Shown in pieces: positions 2,899 to 50,142 of a DNA stretch of 64,000 nucleotides (position 1 is its first letter; every line of letters begins with the position of its first letter). The stretch is from the NCBI GenBank assembly GCA_964438385.1, contig CAYTKI010000028.1, positions 6,521 through 70,520 on the forward strand, in the 5' to 3' direction. A model generated the notes under the pieces. It was not told where the DNA came from. It did not search any database and saw only the letters and a program-made list of their open reading frames with translations. Both the position numbers and the translations under genes were made by a program. The stretch comes from an uncultured Methanosarcinales archaeon (lineage in GTDB: Archaea > Nanobdellota > Nanobdellia > Woesearchaeales > GW2011-AR4).

Positions 2899-3354
2899 TT
2901 ATCCGCAGATATCAAGCTTCACAAACATCGTCCCTGCACGCGTAGGCAGGGGGAATGTCTTTGAGCGCTTCTGGCCAGGACATGCTTGACCAAGCTGCAT
3001 AAGCGTTCTGCTGGTGCCAAGCGAGGCAGTCATCTCATACTTCCATTTCCACTGCTCAAATGTCTTGGAAAATATGGCTGCCGCAACTTCGCGCGCCTTC
3101 TCGCAGGAGGATTTTCCATCGGAGCATACTATGCCCCCCTGCACCGCGCAGTCCTGCAAAAGTTCGGTTGCTGTCAGGTAATTGCAGTCATTGACCGCGG
3201 TATTGAGATAGGTGGATACATAGTTGGAGGCGACCTGCGATTCCACAACTTCCTTGCGTATTGTGCTTGGCTTCTTCAAAGCGATGAATTTTATCGCGAA
3301 CACAAGGCCAAGGACAAGGAGGACTACAACAATTGCAAGTCCGAGGATCTCCAT
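2899..3354 (-). CDS. hypothetical N-terminally anchored membrane protein
   Basis: ORF 2899..3954 trimmed to internal Met (MEILGLAIVVVLLVLGLVFAIKF) because upstream 200 aa are R/S-rich low-complexity and overlap gene 3527..4015. Confidence 0.4.
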   Translation of the reverse strand: MEILGLAIVVVLLVLGLVFAIKFIALKKPSTIRKEVVESQVASNYVSTYLNTAVNDCNYLTATELLQDCAVQGGIVCSDGKSSCEKAREVAAAIFSKTFEQWKWKYEMTASLGTSRTLMQLGQACPGQKRSKTFPLPTRAGTMFVKLDICG

Positions 3355-3526
3355 TTGTGCTTTTCTGGAATGGCGATTTCTGGTGGGTGCGCTTGCGGTG
3401 ATGAAAGTGTGGGTGTGTGGAGGGCATCGTTTGCACATAAAGCGCATCCGTGTGGTTCCTTCCCTTAATTTTTTAATAGTCATTGTGGTGATTAGTGAAA
3501 TGTCGCCCGGTTTTCGTGTCCGTTCT

Positions 3527-4015
3527 TTATCTCGCATACGTCTCAATGGTGATGACACCAAAAGCGCTCCTATCCGTGATGGGATCGAGGAGCGAGATGG
3601 GAGTGTTGCTTGCTGATTTTGAAGTAAATCCCTGCAAAGGAGAGGAGTAAAGGGTATAGTCTCTGGCAGTGGGATAGACTTCCTTAACAGTAATTGTGCT
3701 GAAGCCGAGGATGTCAAAATAGTATTCCTTGTGCTGCGGCATGAGAATAGCCGCCGAACGCAGCTTGATGGTGTCAATGCATGAATCCGTGATGATGTTC
3801 TGCCTGCTGCACTGCAGTTCCGGAAGTGAGAGCGCCTTCTTGAGCACAGTGATGGAATCCAGCTGCACATGCTCATCTTTCTCCGTTGCCGCCTTGGATT
3901 TAAGGATGTTGACATAGAACACCATGCCGATGACCACCAAAAAGAAGAACACAAGTAGGATTGCGATGGTTTCTCCCATCTGCACCTGCCCTCTTGATTT
4001 TTTTGCGCTTTTCAT
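3527..4015 (-). CDS. type IV pilin-like protein with class III signal peptide
   Basis: 162 aa; MKSAKKSRGQ|VQMGETIAILLVFFFLVVIGMVF : RGQ motif, Glu at +5, long hydrophobic helix. Confidence 0.5.
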   Translation of the reverse strand: MKSAKKSRGQVQMGETIAILLVFFFLVVIGMVFYVNILKSKAATEKDEHVQLDSITVLKKALSLPELQCSRQNIITDSCIDTIKLRSAAILMPQHKEYYFDILGFSTITVKEVYPTARDYTLYSSPLQGFTSKSASNTPISLLDPITDRSAFGVITIETYAR

Positions 4016-4105
4016 TTTAAATTTAATTTGATAGTAAAGTATTTCAGTGTGATTTTAGTTTAATGGGGTCTTTTTTTATTGGCAGGGTTCTCACTTGCTT
4101 TCTTT

Positions 4106-5161
4106 TTAGTAAATAAGCGGGCAGGACTGCCTCTGGAGTTGTGAATTGAGGTTCTCAAGCTCAGAGATGGCATGGTTGGCCTGTTGAACAGTCCCTTCAT
4201 TAAGGACAATAGCTGCCGCCCGGATAAGGGAGAATTGAGATAATGCCTGCGTATAGGTCTGCTGGCATCTGAGCAGGCCTGCGGAAGAGGAAAGCTCCTC
4301 AGATCGGCGCTGGTAAATTTCTGTCACCAGAGCGACTTTTTTGAGCATGTTGTCTGCGATGCATTTGTAGAAGAGGTCTTCGCTATTTGATGCAGGCCTG
4401 GATTTTTCATCGCTATAGATTGCGCCAAGGAGCATTTCCTGCCTCAGGTAGGGATAGGTCTTTGCCAAGTCCCATCTGGATTCGATTTTCCTATAGAATG
4501 CGGCTGTTCCTCCGCTCAAGTCCCCGTTCACGCCAAGTGCGCTCATCTTGTTATTCTCGATTGTTGCGAACGATGGAGGAAATGTGGGAAGTGTGTCAAA
4601 AAAAATAAAGCGTGTGTGGTCGTCCTGCTCGGGACGCAGATCTTGGGGTAATATGGAGTGGAGTTCTACCCGTAATGAAGAATGCATGCTCTTATTCACT
4701 GCCCGCGCAAGAGGGGAATTTCCAACGAGGATGTAGCGTATTTTTGGGGAGGATATGTACACCACATTTGTGACGCGGTAGGGGATGCTCCATTCCCTTG
4801 TCTGCACGATGAGGGGGGAAGTGCGGACAACCGATGGCGCAAAAAGCATCATCTGTTGGAATTGCTGTGATTGGCTCCCGATACGCAAAAGGTTGCATTC
4901 AAATTCAATCGTCGCCTGGGGGAGCTCAAGGATGTTGGTTACTCCAAAGGACGCTTCAGAGCCGATTGCTATTGTGCTAAGAGTCTTAAGCAGCGTCGCG
5001 TGGGAAGAGACTTCAGAGATATTTTTTTGCTTGATGACAATCGTCGCAAACAGGGTGAGGATGGCTGCGCCTGCAATGAGGATGAATATCCAGTTGAACT
5101 GCACCTCAACCACTGCCTTCTTGCCAAGAAGGCGTCTATTGCCAATTCGAGAGGAGAACAT
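4106..5161 (-). CDS. hypothetical N-anchored extracellular protein (possible pilin-like)
   Basis: ORF 4106..5314 with start moved to MFSSRIGNRRLLGKKA|VVEVQFNWIFILIAGAAILTLF; exact start uncertain (overlaps upstream gene). Confidence 0.4.
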   Translation of the reverse strand: MFSSRIGNRRLLGKKAVVEVQFNWIFILIAGAAILTLFATIVIKQKNISEVSSHATLLKTLSTIAIGSEASFGVTNILELPQATIEFECNLLRIGSQSQQFQQMMLFAPSVVRTSPLIVQTREWSIPYRVTNVVYISSPKIRYILVGNSPLARAVNKSMHSSLRVELHSILPQDLRPEQDDHTRFIFFDTLPTFPPSFATIENNKMSALGVNGDLSGGTAAFYRKIESRWDLAKTYPYLRQEMLLGAIYSDEKSRPASNSEDLFYKCIADNMLKKVALVTEIYQRRSEELSSSAGLLRCQQTYTQALSQFSLIRAAAIVLNEGTVQQANHAISELENLNSQLQRQSCPLIY

Positions 5162-18236: not shown

Positions 18237-18253
18237 CACTGGACACTGGACAT
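18237..18253 (+). promoter_or_regulatory. CACTGGA-CACTGGACAT motif between tbp stop and mcm start
   Basis: Shares 13-mer GGACACTGGACAT with 49247..49259 and 10-mer with 47242..47251. Confidence 0.4.
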
Positions 18254-18270: not shown

Positions 18271-21200
18271 ATGGCAGAAAAGGATGTAGGGGTACCTATG
18301 GAAACCGAAGAAGCAGGGCTTGAGTTCAGCCCGCGCGCCCAGCCGCAGTACAATGCCCTTGAGCACATCAGAAAATTCAAGGAACTAATGGAGGCATCCT
18401 TCTATTCGGAGATTCTCAAGAGCATCCGCAAGGGTGAAAAATTCTTCGTAATTCCATTTCCCGAACTTTCAAAATTCGATCCTGATCTCGCAAACGATTT
18501 GCTTGACAATCCTGAAGAAGTCATCAAGGCAGCCGAGCTTGCGGTGCAGCAATTTGACCTGGGGATGGAAAACGGCCTGCCTCTTTTTATTCGAATAAGG
18601 TTCTCGGACTTGCCTGCATCCCAGGGAGTCATGATAAGAAATATCAGGAGCGTCCATCTCAACAAGTTTGTTGTTTTGGAAGGGGTAGTGAGGCAGAAAT
18701 CAGATGTCCGCCCACAGGTAACGACCAGCAAGTTCGAATGCCCTGCATGCGGAAACGTCATCAATGTCCTGCAGCTCGATACCACCTTCCGAGAGCCGTC
18801 AAAATGCGGCTGCGGGAGAAAAGGAAAATTCCTCATGCTAAGTAACGAGCTTGTGGATGCGCAGGGGATTGTCATTGAAGAGTCCCCGGAAGTGTTGGAG
18901 GGAGGCGAGCAGCCAAAACGCGTCAATGTCTTTCTAAAGGATGATTTAGTGAGCCCATTAAGCGAGAGGCGCACAAGCCCAGGCTCCAAGGTTGTGGTGA
19001 ATGGTATTGTGAAGGAAGTCCCAATACTCTCGCGCACAGGAGCAAAAATGACAAGATTCGATCTTTTGATTGAGGCGAATTTTGTTGGATCATCGCAGGA
19101 GAGCTTCTATGAGGTGGACCTCAATGAACAGGATATTGTCCAAATCAAGGAAATTGCAGAAGACCCGCGCGGCTATGAGAAAATCATCTCATCAATAGCT
19201 CCTTCCATCTACGGCTATGAGAAGATTAAGGAAGCGCTCTTGCTCCAGATGCTTGGCGGCGTGAGAAAAGTCCGCAACGACAAAGTGGTCAGTAGGGGGG
19301 ATATGCACATTTTGCTTGTCGGTGATCCGGGAGCTGGAAAGTCGCAGCTCCTAAAAAGGGTGGCAACCATTGCCCCAAAATCCCGTTATGTCTCCGGTAA
19401 GGGGGCTTCGGGGGCTGGGCTCACCGCATCAGTTGTTCGTGATGAGTTTCTTAAAGGATGGGCTCTGGAAGCAGGCGCTCTTGTCCTTGCGAGTGATGGA
19501 ATTTGCTGCATTGACGAACTCGATAAGATGGGCGTTGAGGACCGTGCAGCGATGCACGAGGCACTTGAACAGCAATGCTATCATTATGATACCATTATCA
19601 CGCTGGCCAATGGTGAAGAAAAAGTAATTGGGAAATTGGTCGAAGAGCTGCTGCAACAAAACAGTTCTCAGGTCATTCAAGGAAAGGATTGCCTTGTTCT
19701 GCCGATAGGGCATCTTGGCATTGAGATGCTCACAACGGATTGGAAAGATATATTTCCAATCAAAATCAATAGGATAAGCAAGCACATCGCCCCTAGCCAT
19801 TACATCAAAATACAGATCGGCAATGGGAGAAGTGTCATCGTAACGCCTGAGCATCCTTTCTTTTCTATAAATGATGGGAAGATTATCACAAAACGTGCGG
19901 ATGAAGTGATTGAGGGGGACTGGACTCCGGTGCCGCTCATTGCTCCCATCGAAGGAGAGAGGCAATTCTTCGGTGTAAATACAGAAAAGCTCTACAACAG
20001 CAGGGCTTTGAAGCACATCCTCATACCAAAAGGCAACTGCGAGGAGTTTTTCAAGATCGTAGGGTATCTTGCCGCTGAAGGATCGAAGGAGAGGAATAGG
20101 GGAAAACTCATAGGCATCAATTTCACCAATAAGGATCCTCTATTGCTTGAAGATTTCTCCCAGTGCATGCAGTATCTCTTTGGAATTGCCCCCTACAAGC
20201 AGGAGAGGAAAGACCATCATGATGCAAGGTGGATGCTTAGATACATCTCAACTGAGCTTGCGGAATTTTTCAGGAAAAACTGCCCCGGATTGCTTGAGCT
20301 CGCAGCTAAAAAAGAGCTTCCGCAGATTGTCATGCGCGGCGAGAAAAGAAATGTTGCAGCGATGCTGCGGTGCCTTTTTGAGGGAGACGGCCACGTCTCG
20401 AAAAAGACAAGGACGATTCGGATCGGCTACGCTTCAAACAGCGAGCGATTGGTCCACCAAGTGCAGGATCTGCTCTTGCGTTTTGCCATCCGGAGCAATC
20501 TGACGCTCCATGAGGGATCCTACAAGGTTGGCATCACCGGTTATGATAACATCAAGCGCTTTAGAGAGTATATTGGCTTTGTGACTAAGAACGGGAAAAT
20601 TGATGAATATTTGAGGCAGAAATCACCGATTCGGACTGTTAAGGATTTAATCCCAACTATTGCCCTAGAAGTGATTTCTTTGCTAAGAAAATACAAGATT
20701 GGGCAAATTGGAAACTATAAGACATATGATATGGAATATGATCACTGCAGGAGGGGTTTTGATTTTTCAAGAAAGCAGCTTCAGAAGATCGTGCTTGAGC
20801 TGGAACAAAAAATAGGTGAAGAGGACAATGCTGCCTTTTCCAGATTGAAAGGATATGCATTCGGGTCAATTGGATTCGAGCAGGTTCGTTCAGTTGAGCG
20901 AATCGAAGACCGCGACCAGAAATGGAGCTATGATGTCACCATTGAGCCAAATCATACATTTATTTCACAAAATATGGTGTTGCATAACACCGTCTCGGTG
21001 AGCAAAGCAAACGTGCAGGCAACCTTAATTGCTAGAGCAACCGTGCTCGCTGCCGCGAACCCAAAATTCGGTAGGTTTGATCCTTTTGATATCATCGCAA
21101 ACCAGATTGACTTGCCTCCGACTTTGATCAACCGCTTTGATCTCATTTTTCCCATAAAAGACATTCCTGATGAGGTGAGGGACGAGAAGCTCGCAGCCCA

Positions 21201-21789
21201 CATCTTGGGACTGCACCAAAATCCGGAGATCCAAAATACGGATATCTCAACTGATCTGCTCAAGAAATATATCGCATATGCGCGGCAGTTTGTCCGCCCC
21301 CGCCTCACTCCGGAATCCATTGAAGAGATAAAGTCGTTCTACCTCAAGATGCGCGTGTCAGGATCAGGGGAAGGGAGTATTAAGACCATTCCCATTTCAG
21401 CAAGGCAGCTTGAGGCGCTCGTGAGAATGGCAGAGGCCTCGGCAAAATCAAGATTGTCTGATGTGGTGCTAAGAAGGGATGCAAGAAAGGCAATTGAGCT
21501 GTTGGAGTATTGCCTGCTCCAGGTTGGATTTGACAAGGAGACGGGAAAGATAGATATTGACCGAATCGCAACTGGTGTTGGGGCTTCCCAAAGAAACACC
21601 ATCCTCATTGTCAAGGAGATCCTAAATGACCTTGAGATAAAAATGGGCAAGACCATCCCAATTGAAAGCATCGTGCAGGAAGCAAAAAATAGGGGGCTGG
21701 AAAGCGACAAAGTTGAAGAAGCCATCGAGAAACTGCGCCGAACAGGAGATATCTTCGAGCCGAGAAGAGGGTTCATTAGCAGACTGTAA
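18271..21789 (+). CDS. mcm: MCM replicative helicase, intein-containing precursor
   Basis: Walker A GDPGAGKSQLLK, Zn finger CPACGNV...CGCG, MCM core ...RAAMHEALEQQ|intein|TVSVSKANVQATLIARATVLAAANP; 1172 aa = ~701 aa MCM + 471 aa intein. Confidence 0.95.
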   Translation: MAEKDVGVPMETEEAGLEFSPRAQPQYNALEHIRKFKELMEASFYSEILKSIRKGEKFFVIPFPELSKFDPDLANDLLDNPEEVIKAAELAVQQFDLGMENGLPLFIRIRFSDLPASQGVMIRNIRSVHLNKFVVLEGVVRQKSDVRPQVTTSKFECPACGNVINVLQLDTTFREPSKCGCGRKGKFLMLSNELVDAQGIVIEESPEVLEGGEQPKRVNVFLKDDLVSPLSERRTSPGSKVVVNGIVKEVPILSRTGAKMTRFDLLIEANFVGSSQESFYEVDLNEQDIVQIKEIAEDPRGYEKIISSIAPSIYGYEKIKEALLLQMLGGVRKVRNDKVVSRGDMHILLVGDPGAGKSQLLKRVATIAPKSRYVSGKGASGAGLTASVVRDEFLKGWALEAGALVLASDGICCIDELDKMGVEDRAAMHEALEQQCYHYDTIITLANGEEKVIGKLVEELLQQNSSQVIQGKDCLVLPIGHLGIEMLTTDWKDIFPIKINRISKHIAPSHYIKIQIGNGRSVIVTPEHPFFSINDGKIITKRADEVIEGDWTPVPLIAPIEGERQFFGVNTEKLYNSRALKHILIPKGNCEEFFKIVGYLAAEGSKERNRGKLIGINFTNKDPLLLEDFSQCMQYLFGIAPYKQERKDHHDARWMLRYISTELAEFFRKNCPGLLELAAKKELPQIVMRGEKRNVAAMLRCLFEGDGHVSKKTRTIRIGYASNSERLVHQVQDLLLRFAIRSNLTLHEGSYKVGITGYDNIKRFREYIGFVTKNGKIDEYLRQKSPIRTVKDLIPTIALEVISLLRKYKIGQIGNYKTYDMEYDHCRRGFDFSRKQLQKIVLELEQKIGEEDNAAFSRLKGYAFGSIGFEQVRSVERIEDRDQKWSYDVTIEPNHTFISQNMVLHNTVSVSKANVQATLIARATVLAAANPKFGRFDPFDIIANQIDLPPTLINRFDLIFPIKDIPDEVRDEKLAAHILGLHQNPEIQNTDISTDLLKKYIAYARQFVRPRLTPESIEEIKSFYLKMRVSGSGEGSIKTIPISARQLEALVRMAEASAKSRLSDVVLRRDARKAIELLEYCLLQVGFDKETGKIDIDRIATGVGASQRNTILIVKEILNDLEIKMGKTIPIESIVQEAKNRGLESDKVEEAIEKLRRTGDIFEPRRGFISRL
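19576..20988 (+). mobile_element. intein with LAGLIDADG homing-endonuclease domain inside mcm
   Basis: Begins Cys (CYHYDTIITLANGE), ends ...VLHN followed by Thr; two LAGLIDADG-like blocks (VGYLAAEGS, LFEGDGHV); in-frame with mcm. Confidence 0.85.
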
Positions 21790-41278: not shown

Positions 41279-44200
41279 ATGCGCGCGCCAATCATCGTAT
41301 TTTTCCTTTTTCTCACTCCATTAGTTTCTGCTCTTCCTATTAACCTTGGCTTTGAACTGGGAAATATGAGCAACTGGCTCATCACCTATGAGGGGCTTGG
41401 ACTCGACTACACATCAACAGCATCCACTAATTTCAGCACCGAGGGAAACTATTCTGTTCTTTTTGGAGGGGCTTTGGGCTATATGAATAATTTTAATACC
41501 CATTTCTCCGCAATCAACCACTCTACCCAGATGGTTCGGCAGAATGATTTGGTCTGTCTTGACATCAAAAAAGACACTACGGGCTTAGGCAACTGGAAGC
41601 TCTATTCCTCGCTCATGGGAATATTCAAGTCCTCTTCAGTGGACGGCTTTGCCGATGGAAGCTATAATAACACCTGCCTCGCTTCTCCTGAAGAAGGGAA
41701 ACTTGACCTTATCGTGCGGGGGCTTGACGGGAGCTGCGGCTCCACGTGCCGCGTTCGCATCTATGTTGATAACATCCGCGTCTTTCCCTGCAACGACACC
41801 ATCAAAAATGGTGATGAGACGGATATTGACTGTGGGGGGCACTGCGGCCAGTGCGCGAACGGGCTGAACTGCACTAAGCATGCCGATTGCTCCTCTTTCT
41901 ACTGCCAATCAAACTCAACATGCAGGGAAGCGCCCTCCTATCCTTATTACCTCAACACCAACTGGGAATCGGGATTGACAACGTTTTGGGGCTTTTCGTG
42001 GCTGGCAGAAGGGACTTCCACTCTTGATGCCGGGACAAGGTACGCGAGTGAAGGCAACTATTCCTTCATCATAGACAGCCCATCCGGAGGATTGAATTCG
42101 CAATCAGGAAACTCAAACATCGTGAACATGATTCATAATTCAACAAGAGTGGAGCCGGGAGAGGAGGTCTGCCTTGACTACAAGAAGAACGCCACTTCTG
42201 ATACAGAGTATACCATAAAGCTCTACACAAATGGCACAATAAACACTTCCATCCCCACAGGCGAGCACAAGGGGCATTGCGCCACTTCTCTTGGCAACGG
42301 AAGCCTCGGGGTTGTCGTTTTGGGCACGAAAGGAAGCGGCTGCGGAGGCGACTGCATTGGCAACTTCTTTATTGACAACATCACAATTGGGCTTCGCAAC
42401 TGCACAGATGGAAATAAGGACCGGCTTGAGACTGATGTTGACTGTGGCGGCTTTTGTGGCAAATGTGTTGCAGGAAGAAGCTGCCTATTTGGCTTTGATT
42501 GTGTATCTGGCAACTGCTCTTCTTCGGCATGCACGGCTCCTTCCTCCTGCTCCAACCTTGCGCTGGACTCCGGAGAGGAAGGCATTGACTGCGGCTCAGT
42601 GTGCAACATCACCTGCGAGAGGGCACTATTGGAAAGGTATGCTCCTGTGTTGTATTTCCATCCTGACGAGCAGTTCTTTCCGACATCAATAGAGGCGATG
42701 CTGAATGAGAGTGATTTGAGAAATCGCACTTTTTTTACTGATGAAATCTTGGACAATCTTCCAGTTGATCAAAATAGTATACTGTTTGCACCAAATACAA
42801 GCTACTTGGATTTACAAAATTCTAGCGCATTAACAGGCAATTTCGGTGTTCCCGAAGGTACACGTTTTACCAAATATGGATACAAAATATATGGAAGAAA
42901 AGTTGAAATAAACTCTACATACATTTTTCTACAATATTGGGTTTTTTACCCATTTAATGATTGGAATAACAACCATGAAGGTGACTGGGAGATGATTCAA
43001 CTTAAACTCAATTACTCCAATCAGATTCCAATTGAATCTACATATTCCTTCCATTGGGGAGGCATTACTCATAATTGGTCTAGTATTGGAAAAAATGGAA
43101 CCCATCCCAAAGTATATGTTGTTGAAGGAGGTCATGGAAGCTGGAGTACACCTGGAGATCATGATTGGGCACAAGACGTACTAGGTCTTTATTGTCAATC
43201 TTTAACTGATAGAACTTCTAATAATGGAAGTTTTATAGAAATTTATACTAATTATAGTTTAGAAGTCATAAATAATAATAGTGTCTTTGTTAATTTTAAA
43301 GGAAAATGGGGGGAAATCAACACGGAAGGCACAACCGGACCGGATAGTCCAAACAGAATAAATTATGGCGCAGGAAATAGATGGGAAGATCCCTTATCGT
43401 GGGCAAACAATCCTTTACCAAATTCTTATGCGGCTTGTACAGGAAGCCCTGTTAATTTGTATGCTGTTGATCATAATGGCAATAGAATAGGGTTAAATTC
43501 ATCCGGAAACATTACTATTAACATTTCTAATACTTACTTCTATTTAACTTCTGATGGGGGTCAAGAGGCAATAGTAATCTTAAATTCAAATCCAATCACT
43601 TTTATTATAAATGCGACGGGGAACGGAGCATTTAATCTTTCTATAAGTAATTACAACAGTACTTCCTTTTCACGAAAAAACATTGAATACAAAAATGTCA
43701 AAATTACAAACTTTACTACTGCCTTCGTAAGCATTTCTGAAACAAACCCTAACTTTATCATGAGAATAGATAATGACGGGGATGGCAACATAGACTCTAC
43801 ACTCTCCCCAAATAACCTAACAATTAATAACAATGGATCAACTGAAGCAGATTCAGACAACGACAGTTACTCCGATACTATTGATAATTGTCCTCAATTC
43901 TATAACCCCCATCAATTAAACGATACCGATAAGGATGGTTTTAAATCAATCTCCTGCGGAGGTAATGACTGTAATGACGCTAATGTTAACATTAATCCTC
44001 TGGCCTCGGAAATTTGTAATGGATTAGATGATAATTGTGATGGACTTACAGATTCAACCTGCCAAACGGCATCCTCAGGCTCGTCATCCGGGGGAGGGGG
44101 AAGTGGAGGTATACTCTCCACCAAAACAATCAAAGAATGTGAAGGAGAAACTTGCCGGAAGACCCAATCCCCTATACCAGATATAGACTCATATATACAT

Positions 44201-44464
44201 TCTGATCAGTCAAAAAATATCCCTAATTCATTTGAATTAAGTACGGCAGAAAGATTGGCACTAGTAGGAATTTGCTTAGATACTTCTAGTCCTACTCGAA
44301 TAAATTCTCCATGTAATATTAAACTAAACATAGATCGATCTGAAGAATCTGCCTCTTTTAAAGGAATAACTGGAAACACAATTTCTAATAAAAATCAGTT
44401 CTCTCTAGAAGAACTTGGGAGAGCTATCAAAGAATGGTTTTTAAAAATTTTTAATTTTAACTAG
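41279..44464 (+). CDS. large secreted multidomain protein (Cys-rich modules, Vps62/DUF946-like region, MopE-like metal-binding motifs)
   Basis: Signal peptide MRAPIIVFFLFLTPLVSA; CGGHCGQC/CGGFCGKC modules; YAPVLYFHPDEQFFPTS Vps62-like; CGGNDCNDANVNINPLASEICNGLDDNCDG motif; Gly/Ser linker; 3' third is AT-rich. Confidence 0.75.
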   Translation: MRAPIIVFFLFLTPLVSALPINLGFELGNMSNWLITYEGLGLDYTSTASTNFSTEGNYSVLFGGALGYMNNFNTHFSAINHSTQMVRQNDLVCLDIKKDTTGLGNWKLYSSLMGIFKSSSVDGFADGSYNNTCLASPEEGKLDLIVRGLDGSCGSTCRVRIYVDNIRVFPCNDTIKNGDETDIDCGGHCGQCANGLNCTKHADCSSFYCQSNSTCREAPSYPYYLNTNWESGLTTFWGFSWLAEGTSTLDAGTRYASEGNYSFIIDSPSGGLNSQSGNSNIVNMIHNSTRVEPGEEVCLDYKKNATSDTEYTIKLYTNGTINTSIPTGEHKGHCATSLGNGSLGVVVLGTKGSGCGGDCIGNFFIDNITIGLRNCTDGNKDRLETDVDCGGFCGKCVAGRSCLFGFDCVSGNCSSSACTAPSSCSNLALDSGEEGIDCGSVCNITCERALLERYAPVLYFHPDEQFFPTSIEAMLNESDLRNRTFFTDEILDNLPVDQNSILFAPNTSYLDLQNSSALTGNFGVPEGTRFTKYGYKIYGRKVEINSTYIFLQYWVFYPFNDWNNNHEGDWEMIQLKLNYSNQIPIESTYSFHWGGITHNWSSIGKNGTHPKVYVVEGGHGSWSTPGDHDWAQDVLGLYCQSLTDRTSNNGSFIEIYTNYSLEVINNNSVFVNFKGKWGEINTEGTTGPDSPNRINYGAGNRWEDPLSWANNPLPNSYAACTGSPVNLYAVDHNGNRIGLNSSGNITINISNTYFYLTSDGGQEAIVILNSNPITFIINATGNGAFNLSISNYNSTSFSRKNIEYKNVKITNFTTAFVSISETNPNFIMRIDNDGDGNIDSTLSPNNLTINNNGSTEADSDNDSYSDTIDNCPQFYNPHQLNDTDKDGFKSISCGGNDCNDANVNINPLASEICNGLDDNCDGLTDSTCQTASSGSSSGGGGSGGILSTKTIKECEGETCRKTQSPIPDIDSYIHSDQSKNIPNSFELSTAERLALVGICLDTSSPTRINSPCNIKLNIDRSEESASFKGITGNTISNKNQFSLEELGRAIKEWFLKIFNFN

Positions 44465-44778
44465 AAACCCAACTTAAAATTAACTAAGGTGAGTAAGTTA
44501 GCAGTTATTTTTATGCCATATAGTAATACCAGCAACGAAATCCAGATTAAATCTCTAGTGACTAACTTCTCCTTTTTTCCAATATATATAAAAATAATTA
44601 TTCCTAAAATAAAGAATAAAACTGGTAAATAAAAGACGAGTGAAGAAAATAAAAAGAAAAGATTCAGATCGCGAAGGAAAACCTCTATACCATAGTTCAA
44701 ACCTATAAAATCAAAAAAAACCATAAGTGTTAATAGGATTAAAATTAAAATCTGAATTTTTTTGTTCATCATTTCCAT
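44461..44778 (-). CDS. small hydrophobic membrane protein
   Basis: 105 aa, 3 predicted TM; very AT-rich; 31 nt downstream of methyltransferase gene on same strand. Confidence 0.35.
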   Translation of the reverse strand: MEMMNKKIQILILILLTLMVFFDFIGLNYGIEVFLRDLNLFFLFSSLVFYLPVLFFILGIIIFIYIGKKEKLVTRDLIWISLLVLLYGIKITANLLTLVNFKLGF

Positions 44779-44809
44779 AGAATAACTACCAGATATAACA
44801 ATATATAAA

Positions 44810-45622
44810 CTATTCTATCCCCACCTCAACATCCCCAATCGTCCTCTGTGGCGGATTCAACCTCTTTTTGATAATCCCCTCATACCTGCGATCCTTTTCA
44901 ATTCCCACTGAATTTCTGCCAAGCATCTTAGCCACGGCAGATGTCGTTCCTGAGCCAAGGAAGGGGTCCAAAATAGTCTCACCTGGTTTTGAGCAGGCCA
45001 AAATGATGCGCCTTAAAAGCTCTATTGGCTTCTGGGTGGGATGCGCCCCTGCCCATTTTTCCTGTTTTGGGGTCACCGGGATCCACCAGACATTGCGTGT
45101 CTGCTTGCCTATCGGATTGAGGTTATCACTAATCAATTTCTTGGTGTCTTCATAGTTAAATGTCCATCTTTTTCCCTTTCCGTTCTTGGTCGCCCATATC
45201 AGATGCTCGCAGCTCTCTGTAAACATGCGGCAGGAGATGTTTGGCTGCGCATTTGGCTTAAACCACACAATGGAGTTGTTTATCTTCAGGTCAGTCATGG
45301 TCTGGATGATGTTGCCAACTTGGTAGATATTATGGAATGAGCCGCATATCCAAAGAGAGCCACCATGTTTGAGCACTCTGTAGCATTCCTGTATCCACTT
45401 CACATTAAACTTGAAGAATTCGTCCTTGGAGAAGATATCCCACGGTTCTTCCAGGGTGATGTGCTTGCTGTATTTCCAGCCAAGGCCTTTTTTCTTGGCG
45501 AGGCCGTAGGGCGGATCGGCGAAGATGAGCTCAAAATATCCATCAGGAAAAGTTGGAAGGATTTCAAGGCAGTTACCAATGAAAATCCTATGGCTCGTCT
45601 TTTGGAAATCTGAGGGGAACAT
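44810..45622 (-). CDS. beta-class N6-adenine DNA methyltransferase (DpnA/M.MboIC-like)
   Basis: Motif IV IFADPPYGL near N-term, motif I DPFLGSGTTSAVA near C-term (beta permutation); multiple blocks matching DpnA as recalled (WICGSFHNIY, KWAGAHPTQKP). Confidence 0.85.
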   Translation of the reverse strand: MFPSDFQKTSHRIFIGNCLEILPTFPDGYFELIFADPPYGLAKKKGLGWKYSKHITLEEPWDIFSKDEFFKFNVKWIQECYRVLKHGGSLWICGSFHNIYQVGNIIQTMTDLKINNSIVWFKPNAQPNISCRMFTESCEHLIWATKNGKGKRWTFNYEDTKKLISDNLNPIGKQTRNVWWIPVTPKQEKWAGAHPTQKPIELLRRIILACSKPGETILDPFLGSGTTSAVAKMLGRNSVGIEKDRRYEGIIKKRLNPPQRTIGDVEVGIE

Positions 45623-45706
45623 CAGATCCCAGACATTTAAAGTGACTGGTATTTATACTGATGTGACCAGATTGTGACCTAAGTTACGCAATCCTGTAAC
45701 ATAGAT

Positions 45707-46477
45707 TCATTCCACTAAAATATATTTTCCCTTCCCTTCAAACTTGAGAATTCCTTTATTCCGAAGGAATTGAAGCTGCTGCCGGATTTTGTCCTTTATA
45801 TGCCTATTTTGTGGATGGTTTTTCTCAAAGGTCTCTTCAAGGGAATAAATATCCCCCAATTCAAATCTTTTTTGCTCAAGGGAATGGACAGCATTGAGCA
45901 CGTCAACAATCCACCCCCTTTCTGGCAATGATGTTTTCTCCATGAAAGAAATTTTTTTCCATTTGTCCCTGACAATTCTCCGAGGAATCTCTTTTTTGTC
46001 GCCCACAATAGTTATTTTGCCCTCAGGCGGAACTTTGTAAAGGAGCAGATTGCAGCCAACCCAGCCCTTTCTGTCAGCGGATGGCTTGAGTGGCTTCCTT
46101 TTCTCAATAATCGACTCCGTAAAGAAGAAGTGAGGAACGACAAACAAGTCATCAATACAATAGTCGGCATCATATTTCATAAAGAGGAAATTTGGGCGGA
46201 CTAGGTTCCTTATAGAATCTATCATCTTGTGGTATTGACCGTCATTAACACTTTTTCCAAATCTAGACTTTTGACTTTTAAGCTGGAACTCTTCCTTGCA
46301 TTTTTCACAGAAGAAATCGGCAACAGGATAATTGTTTGGAAAAGCGGAAACTTTTGATTCAGAACAAGAGAAGCAGAAGAGATTATTCAATGCCCAATTT
46401 TCCGTAAGTCTTCTCGCAATCTGAGACTTGCTTTTGTACCCTTCGATGAGTCCTTTCTCGTAAAAGCAAAGTTCCAT
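45707..46477 (-). CDS. DpnI-like (Dam-replacing protein family) methyl-directed type IIM restriction endonuclease
   Basis: Start set at MELCFYEKG; blocks YKSKSQIARRLTENW, C4 CFSC...PVADFFCEKCKEEFQLKS (PD-(D/E)XK D..E.K), RKPLKPSADRKGWVGCN, NHIKDKIRQQLQFLRNKGILKFEGKGKY closely parallel DpnI as recalled; length 256 aa. Confidence 0.65.
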   Translation of the reverse strand: MELCFYEKGLIEGYKSKSQIARRLTENWALNNLFCFSCSESKVSAFPNNYPVADFFCEKCKEEFQLKSQKSRFGKSVNDGQYHKMIDSIRNLVRPNFLFMKYDADYCIDDLFVVPHFFFTESIIEKRKPLKPSADRKGWVGCNLLLYKVPPEGKITIVGDKKEIPRRIVRDKWKKISFMEKTSLPERGWIVDVLNAVHSLEQKRFELGDIYSLEETFEKNHPQNRHIKDKIRQQLQFLRNKGILKFEGKGKYILVE

Positions 46478-46512
46478 GACTCTTCTTCTGGGATATTTCT
46501 TAATAAACCTTC

Positions 46513-47184
46513 TCAAAAATCCTGTTTTCTCGATTCACCCACTTCTCCAGTCCTCTCCACCTCCGCAACCACGCACTTTATCTCCCCATACGAGATATCA
46601 TTAGGCAGTTTCTCCTTGACTTCACCCAGCTTTGGACGTGCTGAAAACCCCTTTCGCGCTTCAACAATCATGTCAATTCTCTCCTGTGAAATGAAAGTAA
46701 GGGGATGAGCAAGGTCATCCTTGACGAGCCTGAAGAGGTGATCGTAGATGGTGGACAAAGCAAACCCCCTGGCATGGGCAATCTCCTGCGGATTCTTGCC
46801 TGATAAGAGGTGGCCAAGGGTAATGCGTTCAGACTCCCCAGCATGCTCTTCCTTTATTGTCCTCTCGTGCCGCAAGGGAATGTCAATTTTCTCCTCAAGC
46901 GCCTTGCGTCCGGCATCGGCCATTTCAAGAATCTCATAGAACGGGCCAAGATCAGGAAGCGCTTTTTTCCAGATAAGCTCCATTTGCAAAAGCTGCTCTA
47001 TGAAATTCTCTATAACATCAATGCTAAGCCAGCACAGGCCGCCAAAACCGCGATCCCCCTCAAGAAAATCTATCTTATGGGAAGCAGATCCTTTGAGGAA
47101 AAGCGCCATCTTATGCTTTCCGATGCGATTGCATGAAACGGCATTCAGTATGACCCTGGCAACCTCTCCTGAGCGTTCCATCAT
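46513..47184 (-). CDS. RecQ C-terminal-like DNA-binding protein (RQC winged helix + HTH_40), no helicase domain
   Basis: VARVILNAVSCNRIGKHKMALFLKGSASHKIDF...GGLCWLSIDVIENFIEQLLQMELI resembles RecQ RQC; C-terminal HTH (EIAHARGFALSTIYDHL); start at MMERSGE with TATA 30 nt upstream. Confidence 0.55.
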   Translation of the reverse strand: MMERSGEVARVILNAVSCNRIGKHKMALFLKGSASHKIDFLEGDRGFGGLCWLSIDVIENFIEQLLQMELIWKKALPDLGPFYEILEMADAGRKALEEKIDIPLRHERTIKEEHAGESERITLGHLLSGKNPQEIAHARGFALSTIYDHLFRLVKDDLAHPLTFISQERIDMIVEARKGFSARPKLGEVKEKLPNDISYGEIKCVVAEVERTGEVGESRKQDF

Positions 47185-47214
47185 CTTTAAACCCCCATAC
47201 TCGCTGATGTGTAT

Positions 47215-47274
47215 TTTGAAAGTATAAAACCTTTGCGCCGCCACTGGACATCCGCCTGCGCATCATATATAAAC
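47215..47274. promoter_or_regulatory. divergent promoter: two opposed TATA boxes flanking CACTGGACAT motif
   Basis: ggttttatac (47221-47230, minus gene), motif 47242-47251, atatataaac (47265-47274, plus gene). Confidence 0.45.
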
Positions 47275-47295: not shown

Positions 47296-48135
47296 ATGGA
47301 TAAGGACAATGCCCTTGTGGTGTTTGAGGATAGGAAAATACGCAGGATTTGGCACGAAAAAGAGTGGTATTTCTCTGTCATCGATGTTGTGGATGCCCTA
47401 GATGCAAGTAATCTCCCAAAAAGATACTGGTCCGACCTTAAAGTCAAGCTTTCAGAAGAAGGGTTTGAAGCGTACGATAAAATCGTACAGTTGAAATTGC
47501 CAGCAGAGGATGGCAAGCTAAGGGAAACGGACTGCGCAAGCACCAAGAGCATGTTCCGTATCATCCAATCCATCCCCTCCCCCAAGGCAGAGCCCTTCAA
47601 GCAGTGGCTTGCGCAGGTGGGCTACGAGCGTGTCCAGGAGATTGAAAACCCTGAACTCGCCCAAGAGAGGATGATAGGCCTTTACGAGCAAAAAGGATAC
47701 TCAAAGCCGTGGATTGACAAGAGGATAAGGGGCATTGCCGTGCGCCATGAACTCACTGATGAATGGAAGAAGAGAGGGGTTGAAAGCAAGGCCGATTTCT
47801 CCATACTCACTTCAGAGATCTCAAAAGCAAGCTTCGGCATGACTCCCAAAGAATACCGTAAGCTCAAGGGGCTTGATAAAGAAAATCTTCGTGACCACAT
47901 GACTGGTCTTGAACTTATTTTCTCCATGCTTGGCGAAGCCTCTACCTCGGAAATCGAGAAGGCGAAAGATCCCAAAACATTCGATGAGCATAAGATTGTA
48001 TCACAGGAAGGTGGAAGCGTGGCAAAGAGCGCTAGGCTTGATCTGGAGCATAAGACCAAGAGAAAGATCATCTCCAAAGATAATTACCTCAATGAGCCGG
48101 AAAAAGAGAAGCGAAAGAAGCTCCAAAAACAATAA
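47296..48135 (+). CDS. Bro-N domain / DinD-like (DNA-damage-inducible protein D family) protein
   Basis: Start MDKDNALVVFEDRKIRRIWHEKEWYFSVIDVVDAL (Bro-N); conserved FRIIQSIPSPKAEPFKQWLAQVGYERV; basic C-terminal tail. Confidence 0.7.
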   Translation: MDKDNALVVFEDRKIRRIWHEKEWYFSVIDVVDALDASNLPKRYWSDLKVKLSEEGFEAYDKIVQLKLPAEDGKLRETDCASTKSMFRIIQSIPSPKAEPFKQWLAQVGYERVQEIENPELAQERMIGLYEQKGYSKPWIDKRIRGIAVRHELTDEWKKRGVESKADFSILTSEISKASFGMTPKEYRKLKGLDKENLRDHMTGLELIFSMLGEASTSEIEKAKDPKTFDEHKIVSQEGGSVAKSARLDLEHKTKRKIISKDNYLNEPEKEKRKKLQKQ

Positions 48136-49246: not shown

Positions 49247-49259
49247 GGACACTGGACAT
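49247..49259 (+). promoter_or_regulatory. GGACACTGGACAT motif upstream of TATA (49270-49281) of Bro-N/DinD-like pseudogene
   Basis: Same motif and same spacing to TATA as at 47242-47251. Confidence 0.4.
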
Positions 49260-49301: not shown

Positions 49302-50142
49302 ATGGGTAAAGATAATTCTCTAGTAGCGTTTCAAGACAAGAAAATCAGGTGAATTTGGCATAATAGTGAGTGGTATTTCTCAGTTGTCGATGTGGTTGAG
49401 GCACTGACTGATAGTTCTAGTCCCCGACAATATTGGGGGGTCTTGAAGGGTAGGGAAAATCAGTTGTTAACATTTTGTTTACAACTGAAACTACCATCAA
49501 CCGATGGCAAGTCTTACTCAACAGACTGCGCCAACACTAAAAACATGTTCCGTATTATCCAATCCATCCCCTCCCCCAAGGCAGAGCCCTTCAAGCAGTG
49601 GCTTGCTCAGGTTGGCTATGAACGTGTGCTGGAGATTGAAAACCCGGAGATTGCCCAGAACAGGGTCAGGGAATACTATGAGCTCAAAAATTACCCAAAA
49701 GATTGGATAGACAAGCGACTCAGAGGAATGGTCATTAGGCAGGAACTGACTGGTGAGTGGAAAAACAGAGGTGTTACCCAAGAGACAGATTTTGCCATTC
49801 TCACTAACGAAATAAGCAAGGCAACATTCGGCAAGACAGTGCAAGAATACAAACAATTTAAAGGCATCGGGAGGAAGAACCAGAACCTGCGCGATCACAT
49901 GACTGATTGGGAGATTATCTTTACCATGCTTGGAGAGAAAGCCACAACAGACATCACCAAAGCAAGAGATGCCAAGGGGCTTGAGGAAAACAAGCAGACC
50001 GCGCGAAGAGGGGGGGCAGATAGCACACATTGCGAGAAAGGAGATTGAGAAGGAGACGGGAAAGTCAGTGGTTTCAACAATAAATTTTCTCAGCATCACA
50101 GAAAAGAAAGCGCTAAAACTTAAGAAGAAAAACAGCAAGTGA
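49302..50142 (+). pseudogene. disrupted paralog of the Bro-N/DinD-like gene
   Basis: MGKDNSLVAFQDKKIR*IWHNSEWYFSVVDVVEAL: in-frame TGA at 49350-49352; ~60-nt stretch identical to copy 1 (49555-49614 vs 47560-47619); C-terminal tail continues in another frame (frameshift near 49990). Confidence 0.6.

Follow-up and report, generated by a model that had tools for sequence, protein, structure and literature searches.

We analyzed a stretch of 64,000 nucleotides (nt) of contig CAYTKI010000028.1 (hereafter the window), in which a gene for a DpnI-family endonuclease lies directly upstream of a gene for an intact methyltransferase with GATC as its predicted target. DpnI activity and GATC methylation are a textbook example of functions that exclude each other, known from the DpnI/DpnII cassettes of pneumococci and the dam/drg locus of Neisseria. 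The locus consists of four co-directional genes on the minus strand. Gene 1 (46513..47184; 223 amino acids (aa) from its ATG) encodes a protein with an RQC-like winged helix and an HTH_40 domain, as assigned with Pfam and an AlphaFold model searched with Foldseek. Gene 2 (45707..46477; 256 aa) encodes a DpnI-family type IIM, i.e. N6-methyladenine (m6A)-dependent, endonuclease (Pfam, PDB entry 4esj, PADLOC), and gene 3 (44810..45622; 270 aa) a beta-class N6-adenine DNA methyltransferase, with its predicted target based on Pfam, contact loops and orthologue cassettes. Gene 4 (44461..44778; 105 aa) encodes a small membrane protein, which is also the companion of the methyltransferase in the nearest syntenic relative, L103 (comparison loci are given L numbers throughout). 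Genes 1 and 2 are separated by 35 nt, and genes 2 and 3 by an 84-nt spacer (45623..45706, minus strand) with a putative methyltransferase promoter/operator, as judged from its conservation in comparison with locus L100. Divergently from gene 1, on the plus strand, lies a DinD/Bro-N gene (DinD1, 47297..48135; Pfam, NCBIfam, PADLOC), a pairing that is kept in L180, and the spacer between the two carries the motif CACTGGACAT (47242..47251, plus strand), 13–14 nt upstream of the DinD1 TATA box. An original prediction, made from the sequence alone, had described three co-directional genes with gaps of 35 and 84 nt, followed by a small membrane open reading frame (ORF) on the same strand. This layout was confirmed, with a length of 223 aa for gene 1, and all three family calls held in Pfam, PDB and PADLOC searches; the observation as a whole was largely right. 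Together these genes form a variable restriction-modification (R-M) locus bounded by a tyrosyl-tRNA synthetase (TyrRS) gene and a giant Vps62/MopE surface-protein gene. The top matches for all genes were in metagenome-assembled genomes of Woesearchaeota, Pacearchaeota and Nanoarchaeota, and the translations of a flanking tRNA-splicing endonuclease-like ORF, of TATA-binding protein and of the minichromosome maintenance (MCM) helicase, read by eye, were archaeal-looking; the host of the window is a tiny, symbiotic DPANN archaeon.

The product of gene 2 matched Pfam DpnI (2.4e-65) and DpnI_C (2.7e-27), R.DpnI in PDB entry 4esj along its whole length (5.8e-67), and the PADLOC model mREase_II ('type II methyl-directed restriction enzyme', 1e-78), and it combines an N-terminal Cys4-Zn PD-(D/Q)xK domain with a C-terminal winged helix. 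R.DpnI residues with published roles were taken from two structure papers (PMC3424567, including the zinc-site cysteines; PMC4117772, including the methyl pocket and G:C readout) and mapped onto an alignment of 97 homologues. The zinc site (C34, C37, C56, C59, as two CXXC motifs) is conserved. The protein also matches R.DpnI exactly in its guanine/thymine contacts (S17, Q18, N48, R126, R135), in its methyl pocket (L129/R135/W138/G140) and at K229, R231, Q232 and Q235 of the winged helix; pocket and winged-helix residues are kept in 96–97 of the 97 homologues. All known Gm6ATC-reading residues are therefore present, and the full-length alignment with DpnI, the C4 zinc site and the m6A-reading winged helix named in the original prediction were borne out. 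The PD...E...K catalytic core that it had also named was not found; the alignment shows D...QxK rather than D...ExK, with D53 and K66 present and E64 replaced by Q. Residue E228 is replaced by D, the commonest residue of the family at this position. Q64 occurs in 29 of the 97 homologues, every DPANN one included, with or without an adjacent methylase, and D53 and K66 are invariant among them, so that the change marks a lineage and does not point to decay. In comparison with the 87% identical homologue in L181, the ratio of non-synonymous to synonymous substitution rates (dN/dS) was 0.11 at a synonymous divergence (dS) of 0.55. We thus predict that gene 2 encodes a Gm6ATC-dependent endonuclease with a Q64 variant of the catalytic motif. 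It resembles R.DpnI of Streptococcus pneumoniae (dpnC; type IIM; PDB 4esj/4kyw) in its two-domain architecture, zinc site, D53/K66, N48/R126/R135, pocket and winged-helix residues, and differs in E64Q and E228D and in its archaeal host. Moreover, an intact methylase of the GATC lineage follows it, while in pneumococci a DpnI cassette rules out the DpnII methylases. We recognised no dpnD-like gene at the window locus.

Gene 3 belongs to Pfam N6_N4_Mtase (6.6e-56) and has the beta-class motif order, with DPPY before FxGxG, and intact DPPY and DPFLGSGTT motifs within ~270 aa. Its product is 43% identical to M.LlaDCHIB, the DpnA orthologue of plasmid pSRQ700, whose gene lies there between a Dam-like methylase and a DpnII restriction endonuclease (REase), and 41.6% identical to Sinorhizobium CcrM; the earlier description as a beta-class DPPY enzyme very close to DpnA/M.MboIC was thus correct as to class and lineage and overstated as to closeness. 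The best-scoring PDB match was CcrM (6pbd, 4.4e-53), as was the best NCBIfam score. Raw similarity does not settle the target, and it is the contact loops, the gene context and the depletion of GATC that place gene 3 with the GATC enzymes. In CcrM, Loop-45 reads T and C (PMC6787082); the Loop-45 of gene 3 is of the DpnA type (PNISCRMFT) and not of the CcrM type (PNFKGRRF), as seen by comparing the window (KPNAQPNISCRMFTES), LlaDCHIB (KTNPAPNLSCRYFTHS) and CcrM (KTNPMPNFKGRRFQNA), and it fits the motif PN[LI]SCR[YM]FT of cassette-proven GATC enzymes (LlaDCHIB, S. aureus, L. plantarum). The residues fully conserved in CcrM-type enzymes, R44 in Loop-2B and F125, G127, R129 and N132 in Loop-45 (PMC7672430), are replaced in gene 3 (F125I, G127C, R129M, N132E, and R44G plus the loss of one residue). 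The sequence stops at the linker, without the C-terminal DNA-binding segment (~80 residues) of CcrM/HinfI. Gene 3 shares its catalytic fold, motif order and best-scoring solved structure with the GANTC enzymes CcrM and M.HinfI; it differs from them in this missing segment and at all five of the replaced positions, and we do not class it with them.

A metagenome scan gave 80 loci with methyltransferases 68–89% identical to that of the window. In L107 and L130, orthologues with near-identical contact loops (79% and 76% identity) lie between a DpnII-family REase (PF04556, 2e-20) and a Dam-like methylase (PF02086, 2e-62), i.e. in a complete DpnII-type GATC cassette, and these cassettes are the basis on which the specificity of gene 3 is predicted. 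Downstream of the methyltransferase, 13 of the 80 loci carry a Dam-like gene; the window holds neither a DpnII REase nor a Dam-like methylase. GATC had been described as not depleted, which is wrong; we counted 181 occurrences in the window against 335 expected from a maximal-order Markov model (observed/expected (O/E) 0.54, z -11.4), so that GATC is the most strongly depleted of the 4-bp palindromes, and it was likewise the most depleted palindrome in 572 kb of methyltransferase-bearing loci (O/E 0.60, z -20.8). GANTC was not depleted in the window (233 observed, 247 expected from base composition). It is highly probable, on these lines of comparison, that gene 3 encodes a GATC-specific m6A methyltransferase of the DpnA lineage; this target is not certain, because gene 3 and the bacterial DpnA/LlaDCHIB enzymes differ in Loop-2B, the element by which CcrM reads G-A-N. 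Gene 3 thus falls in the beta-methylase lineage of the DpnII/LlaDCHI/MboI-type cassettes, with a common Loop-45, but it differs from them in Loop-2B, in the lack of both usual cassette partners, and in having as its partner a methyl-dependent enzyme of the opposite cassette type. As a separate observation, one DpnI-linked methyltransferase (L163:5793-6551) carries NPPY for DPPY in motif IV, with its other contact loops unchanged.

The 84-nt spacer contains a palindrome, GTTAC-N8-GTAAC (45700-45683), GGTCACA direct repeats, TATA-like boxes at 45657-45650 and 45641-45635, and a GATC at 45628-45625, ending 2 nt upstream of the ATG. Over ~82 nt upstream of the ATG, there are only 2 differences from L100, which has no DpnI gene, compared with ~83% identity and a dS of ~1.6 in the coding sequence. 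This layout of palindrome, TATA boxes and GATC was seen only in most DpnI-linked loci, in loci linked to the gene family c26 (described below), and in L100–L102, and its conservation suggests that the spacer carries the methyltransferase's own promoter/operator. The GATC before the start codon, considered as an autoregulatory methylation site, was not used as evidence, as GATCC also fits the 3' part of the anti-Shine-Dalgarno complement and the site, which could belong to a Shine-Dalgarno-like element, is ambiguous. A scan for sigma-70 promoters and intrinsic terminators gave fewer matches than shuffled sequences, and its bacterial models are not relevant to an archaeon. Gene 3 has a dN/dS of 0.04–0.05 in comparison with L100 and L103, and on its own branch we counted 65 synonymous and 11 conservative non-synonymous changes. 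Among the DPANN DpnI-linked pairs of the window type, the methyltransferase was full-length and free of stops in 8 of 8, usually with its conserved promoter, and in the linked pairs of L154 and L163 dN/dS was 0.067 for the methyltransferase and 0.079 for DpnI. By these measures, both window genes are predicted to be functional, and with intact methylases, purifying selection and a conserved promoter, the coexistence of DpnI and methyltransferase appears to be physiologically tolerated, and not just a snapshot.

The original prediction had grouped the RQC-HTH, DpnI and methyltransferase genes into a candidate defence or DNA-surveillance system. Our data do not support such a three-gene system: we found all three together in none of 161 DpnI or methyltransferase loci, and the parts occur separately in L001, L103 and L180. 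Locus L001 has the order TyrRS, DpnI, two small ORFs and Vps62 (DpnI 70% and TyrRS 81% identical to those of the window), with no methyltransferase and no RQC-HTH gene, and the sequence 3' of DpnI in this syntenic locus, when searched, contained no remnant of a methyltransferase. In L103 (methyltransferase 88% identical), the order is c1 (a gene family described below), a winged helix-turn-helix (wHTH) gene, methyltransferase, membrane gene and Vps62, with no DpnI, and in L100–L102 (methyltransferase 89% identical) a divergent wHTH gene lies upstream, with no DpnI within the ~820 nt of upstream sequence at hand. The only other adjacency of RQC-HTH and DpnI was found in L181, where the C-terminus of an RQC-HTH gene lies upstream of the 87% identical DpnI gene on a 914-nt contig that ends before the downstream side. 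The membrane gene had no match in Pfam, NCBIfam or PADLOC; a 68% identical homologue lies directly 3' of the methyltransferase in L103, and none was present at the other methyltransferase loci of the 80-locus set. As judged from these comparisons, the locus is a mosaic of three independent modules: a divergent pair of DinD/Bro-N (PDC-S13-like) and RQC-HTH_40 genes; a mobile gene for a DpnI-family type IIM endonuclease; and a resident DpnA-lineage methyltransferase with its own promoter and small membrane gene.

The pairing of the latter two modules recurs. A DpnI gene lies directly upstream of the methyltransferase, on the same strand, in 5 of the 80 methyltransferase loci (L118, L121, L124, L154, L163), with spacings from a 3-nt overlap to 164 nt. 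Further DPANN pairs were found in L007–L009 (the same place as L124; L009 comes from the Nanoarchaeota genome GCA_018816725.1), L014 and L041. At least seven distinct DPANN loci, the window and at least six others, thus have the two genes arranged and oriented alike. We also surveyed 80 DpnI loci, with one genome per species, from many bacterial phyla and some archaea. In this DpnI survey, a homologous beta methylase was near DpnI in 22 loci and a Dam-like gene in 11, and most DpnI genes were solitary. In the DPANN pairs, DpnI ends just before the methyltransferase promoter, in the position usually taken by a restriction partner; elsewhere, this position is held by a DpnII REase, a DUF6996/6997 protein (PADLOC REase_II, 1e-16), c0/c1, or the NucS_C-like c26, and the partners often come with a small wHTH or ribbon-helix-helix gene that is translationally coupled to the methylase. 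A search with trimmed domains found DpnII-family REases only in L107, L130 and L131 among the methyltransferase loci; their apparent presence in nearly every locus was rejected as an artefact of an antisense ORF overlapping the methyltransferase gene. The DpnI-linked methyltransferases are scattered over the methyltransferase tree, beside sisters with ordinary partners, and between L121 and L014 the DpnI proteins are 98% identical (dS 0.16) and the adjacent methyltransferases 85% (dS 1.33), a contrast which points to DpnI as a recently mobile element landing beside resident methylases. The module is not obviously viral, a scan of viral contigs having given no methyltransferase relative and only two full-length DpnI matches.

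Two of the gene families in the partner position deserve separate description. Proteins c0 (~178 aa) and c1 (~190–287 aa) are mutual homologues (hhalign, 88% probability), and one or the other lies beside the methyltransferase on the opposite strand in 52 of the 80 methyltransferase loci (L100–L179), e.g. at L145:2543-3079 (minus strand) and L158:5035-5898 (minus strand). Neither had a match in Pfam, NCBIfam, PADLOC or PDB (phmmer), nor to DpnII REases (hhalign); from their position they may represent a new family of GATC REases. Protein c26 (328 aa; L111:480-1466, plus strand; also in L125) stands in the place of DpnI before the same palindromic promoter, and has a NucS_C-like PD-(D/E)XK C-terminal domain (4e-6) and an N-terminal domain without assignment.

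In bacteria, DpnI genes were found inserted into DpnII-type cassettes (L064:2587-2973, L083:2130-4034, L015:5544-7660). The insertion cuts the beta methylase at about residue 130 in L064 and about residue 170 in L083, with DpnI directly abutting; remnants of a DpnII REase lie downstream of DpnI in L015 and L083, and a dam fragment precedes it in L015. The DpnA-type neighbours of bacterial DpnI genes, 55–60% identical to LlaDCHIB, are in many cases decayed, through stops (L018, L039, L096), frameshifts (L022, L062) or 5' truncations (L026, L040, L046, L048, L059). This is the 'dam-replacing' logic, by which a Gm6ATC-dependent nuclease establishes itself only if GATC methylation is lost at the same stroke. 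In Bacteroidota, a cassette of Dam-like, DpnI and DpnA-like genes recurs with common junctions (L017, L018, L026, L039, L048, L059); beyond RSINANPEK, its Dam carries a conserved tail in place of the usual C-terminus, and ~20 residues are missing from the N-terminus of the DpnA-like protein. The Dam-like and DpnA-like methylases of this cassette gave values of 0.09 and 0.03, respectively (dN/dS, or its polymorphism counterpart pN/pS, where measurable), with stops in some DpnA-like copies. A reading of the Dam-like genes as 3'-truncated pseudogenes was rejected, as the altered tail is itself conserved and pN/pS is low.

Neisseria gonorrhoeae offers a parallel. There, drg, which is DpnI-like, precedes a DpnIIB-like methylase, and its endonuclease cuts GmeATC (PMC4269198; the locus is also described in PMC6789123); in our survey, drg (2976-3716) and the methylase (4001-4687) lie on the same strand of L096. 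Strains with drg carry a truncated methylase and have no GATC methylation (PMC6789123), and PD-(D/E)XK-wH enzymes beside 6mA methylases have been described as a 'genomic conflict', survived by way of frameshifts or regulation (PMC11037411). We found nothing specific in the literature on DPANN methylomes or on a described DpnI-plus-methylase system. With these precedents, the earlier proposal of an undescribed system goes too far. The neisserial drg/NgoAXI locus shares with the window the order of a DpnI homologue followed directly by a co-directional beta methylase of the DpnA type, and arose by insertion into a GATC methylase locus, as we propose for the window pair; the gonococcal methylase has a stop or truncation, whereas that of the window is intact, with a conserved promoter and under purifying selection. 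The window pair is an archaeal, intact-methylase case of the known conflict between DpnI and GATC methylases. Taken together, the surveys indicate that DpnI genes preferentially land inside GATC R-M cassettes, in bacteria as well as archaea, and that in DPANN archaea the methylase survives the arrival of DpnI intact and under selection.

How both can be kept in one cell is the question raised by the original prediction, which saw in their co-residence a conflict that one partner must resolve by altered specificity, or the pair by regulation or by working in some new way; with a GATC-lineage methylase and every reading residue of DpnI retained, we agree. The explanation that we favor, with moderate confidence, is that the locus is a mosaic, in which DpnI acts alone and the GATC methyltransferase coexists with it as chromosomal GATC is not fully methylated on both strands. 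DpnI would restrict incoming Gm6ATC DNA, e.g. from Dam-positive hosts or their viruses, the methyltransferase would methylate GATC, and the two could coexist only because full methylation of both strands is not maintained on the chromosome. Most likely, this would come about either by repression of the methyltransferase through its conserved palindromic operator, or by a DpnA-like preference for single-stranded DNA, leaving hemimethylated sites that DpnI would cut poorly. DpnA methylates single-stranded DNA (PMC3573125), M.HinfI without its C-terminal segment loses its activity on double-stranded DNA and keeps that on single-stranded DNA (PMC7672430), and DpnI is far less efficient on hemimethylated than on fully methylated sites (PMC3424567). 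Should the pair be no more than tolerated in this way, it provides a clean natural experiment on epigenetic conflict (by repression, single-strand-only methylation or hemimethylation) and a mechanism for the spread of 'dam-replacing' events.

Several points weigh against this explanation. In L133, L135 and L148–L150, a methyltransferase with these loops is the sole methylase found next to type II REases, which implies protection of duplex DNA and thus weakens the single-strand route. This favors regulation over an intrinsic single-strand preference, and for the same reason the mode suggested by the original prediction, in which single-stranded DNA is marked and then cut, is somewhat disfavored, since same-loop methylases apparently protect duplex DNA. 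Both routes are ones that we infer, no repressor for the palindromic operator was identified within the window, and the catalytic activity of the Q64 variant is itself a prediction. Finally, the conservation of the linked methyltransferases, intact in all eight DPANN pairs and under purifying selection there, and of some bacterial Dam-like and DpnA-like neighbours of DpnI, goes beyond what one would expect from mere tolerance and leaves room for functional coupling.

Among the alternatives, it is rather unlikely that recombination at a hyper-variable locus has left the window with a transient or dead-end arrangement that is about to lose one partner, with one gene silent or recently inactivated in a way that leaves no visible trace, i.e. 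a 'dam-replacing' event caught in passing. The locus is strongly mosaic, with each gene found alone in close relatives; the nearest DpnI homologues (86–87% identical) are on contigs of 914–919 nt, and L181 breaks at the gene ends, as if the flanks differed between strains. Every stage of methylase decay is found beside DpnI in bacteria, and the truncated methylase and absence of GATC methylation in Neisseria strains with drg (PMC6789123) fit such an end point. However, the excess of synonymous changes on the window methyltransferase branch, the nearly invariant promoter and the low dN/dS of DpnI, over a dS of 0.55, argue against it, and eight intact pairs out of eight would be unlikely for short-lived lethal or neutral intermediates.

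An unlikely reading is that the two genes form a coupled immune module that writes and then cuts. The methyltransferase would be silent, through the palindromic operator, or limited to certain DNA forms such as single-stranded or replicating foreign DNA; it would mark GATC on infection, and DpnI, in the same cell or in clonal neighbours (as in Pgl), would destroy the invader or the DNA of the whole cell (abortive infection). Such a module would be present in DPANN archaea and possibly also in the Bacteroidota cassettes of Dam-like, DpnI and DpnA-like genes, and, if real, would make an immune system of very few genes that modifies first and restricts afterwards. It would account for the recurrence of the two genes, arranged alike and with an intact methyltransferase throughout, in at least seven DPANN loci, for purifying selection on both partners (in the window, 0.04–0.05 for the methyltransferase and 0.11 for DpnI, alongside the L154/L163 values), for the association of the palindromic promoter with DpnI, the second nuclease c26 or L100–L102, and for the low dN/dS of the Bacteroidota methylases. 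Pgl of Streptomyces coelicolor also sets a precedent, as the one described system in which phage DNA is first marked by a host methyltransferase and then restricted (PMC4365076). Pgl is an analogy only, with four genes (PglW, X, Y and Z) including a kinase and an ATPase and no DpnI-like enzyme. Several comparative findings speak against coupling: DpnI accompanies just 5 of the 80 methyltransferases and is mostly solitary, the linked methyltransferases have the same contact loops as classical R-M ones and do not form a clade, DpnI is far younger than the neighbouring methyltransferase in L121/L014, adjacent bacterial methylases are often truncated, frameshifted or stopped, close relatives at the same locus retain one gene of the two, no third or regulatory gene is conserved, and the pair was not found on viral contigs.

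There would be no conflict at all if the methyltransferase recognised a site other than GATC, e.g. a CcrM/HinfI-like GANTC, and the genes merely shared a defence island. The top PDB and NCBIfam scores to CcrM, a Loop-2B unlike that of DpnA/LlaDCHIB, and the fact that sequence alone gives no certain specificity lend this some weight, but we consider it very unlikely given the replaced CcrM residues and absent C-terminal domain, the GATC-type Loop-45, the orthologues with near-identical loops in complete DpnII-REase/Dam cassettes, the depletion of GATC and not of GANTC, and the repeated finding of DpnI beside exactly this methylase lineage in archaea and bacteria. Least probable is that the DpnI homologue is an ordinary type II enzyme acting on unmethylated DNA or a non-cutting m6A reader, and the pair an R-M or reader-writer system, as the R-M-like gene order and spacing and the change of E64 to Q in all DPANN members might suggest, since the methyl pocket and winged-helix residues are almost invariant in the family, D53 and K66 never vary in the 29 sequences with Q64 (suggesting that catalysis is retained), PD-QxK is among the listed nuclease motifs (PMC11037411), and Q64 enzymes also occur alone without any methylase (L001, L003).

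The remaining module comprises the RQC-HTH protein and its DinD partner. Gene 1 has a full HTH_40 domain (Pfam, 1.2e-18) and a Pfam RQC match of 1.1e-4, at 22.5 bits just under the gathering score of 23 bits. Its AlphaFold model (AF2; 32 homologues; mean predicted local distance difference test score 81.6) matched the RQC winged helices of BLM, WRN and RecQ over ~100 residues with a template modelling score of ~0.7 in Foldseek, and fits PadR-type winged-helix regulators about equally well. The prediction of an RQC plus HTH_40 tail without a helicase was therefore well founded: the protein contains no helicase domain, and none is encoded adjacent to it. It is like the C-terminal region of Bacillus-type RecQ in its RQC-like winged helix, by fold, and its HTH_40 domain, and unlike it in having no helicase core and in its conserved partner, which is DinD/Bro-N and neither a helicase nor DpnI. 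Only 32 homologues were detectable, and those at 42% identity (L010–L013) lie in an unrelated conserved gene cluster in Woesearchaeota. In L180, the RQC-HTH protein is 79% identical, and the divergent DinD/Bro-N partner and the spacer are kept with no DpnI downstream; DNA homology to the window ends exactly at the RQC-HTH stop codon, after which a different methylase fragment follows. As this divergent pair exists without DpnI, we infer that RQC-HTH belongs with DinD, as a DNA-binding neighbour, and is not part of the DpnI pair. DinD1, with its probable true start at MDKDNALV (47297), matched Pfam Bro-N (8e-12), weakly NCBIfam DinD, and, over its full length, the PADLOC candidate PDC-S13 (3.6e-119), which makes it a candidate single-gene defence protein.

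There are three exact copies of the 10-mer CACTGGACAT on the plus strand of the window (18244-18253, 47242-47251 and 49250-49259), compared with 0.12 expected. Each precedes a plus-strand gene, namely MCM (18271), DinD1 or DinD2, at 13–14 nt from its TATA-like box. The motif is conserved between DinD and RQC-HTH in L180 (L180:715-724) and after TyrRS in L001/L002 (L001:4891-4900). The earlier claim that the promoter of the gene 1–3 operon shares an operator with DinD-like genes holds insofar as three exact copies exist; the motif is primarily that of the plus-strand MCM, DinD1 and DinD2 genes, and merely lies in the divergent spacer. It is a lineage-specific regulatory motif with only a positional link to the DpnI and methyltransferase genes, and may be the operator of a replication- or damage-related regulon.

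Other features of the window and of the surveyed loci were observed in passing. DinD2 (49308-50048, plus strand) has an in-frame stop ~15 codons after a DinD1-like N-terminus (KDNSLVAFQDKKIR*IWH...), and is probably a pseudogene, or else, from the listed GTG start at 49392, a truncated remnant. The MCM helicase ORF (18271-21789, plus strand, 1172 aa) contains an intein-like insertion after ...MHEALEQQ, running from CYHYDTIITLANGEE to ...VLHN before TVSVSKA, as read by eye. DinD/Bro-N (PDC-S13-like) genes were also found within 1–3 kb of DpnI or methyltransferase genes on unrelated DPANN and Parcubacteria contigs (L003–L006:8192-9025, L058, L136, L141, L172), some of them with HEPN/nucleotidyltransferase or PIN modules, which suggests defence-island neighbourhoods. 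The giant secreted or surface protein that bounds the locus (41279-44464, plus strand, 1061 aa) has Vps62, MopE metal-binding and TSP3 repeats; compared at L001 and L100–L103, it is only 38–56% identical in relatives with a methyltransferase of 88–89% identity, and over the 3' end of its gene and the membrane gene (43–45 kb) the GC content falls to 0.35.

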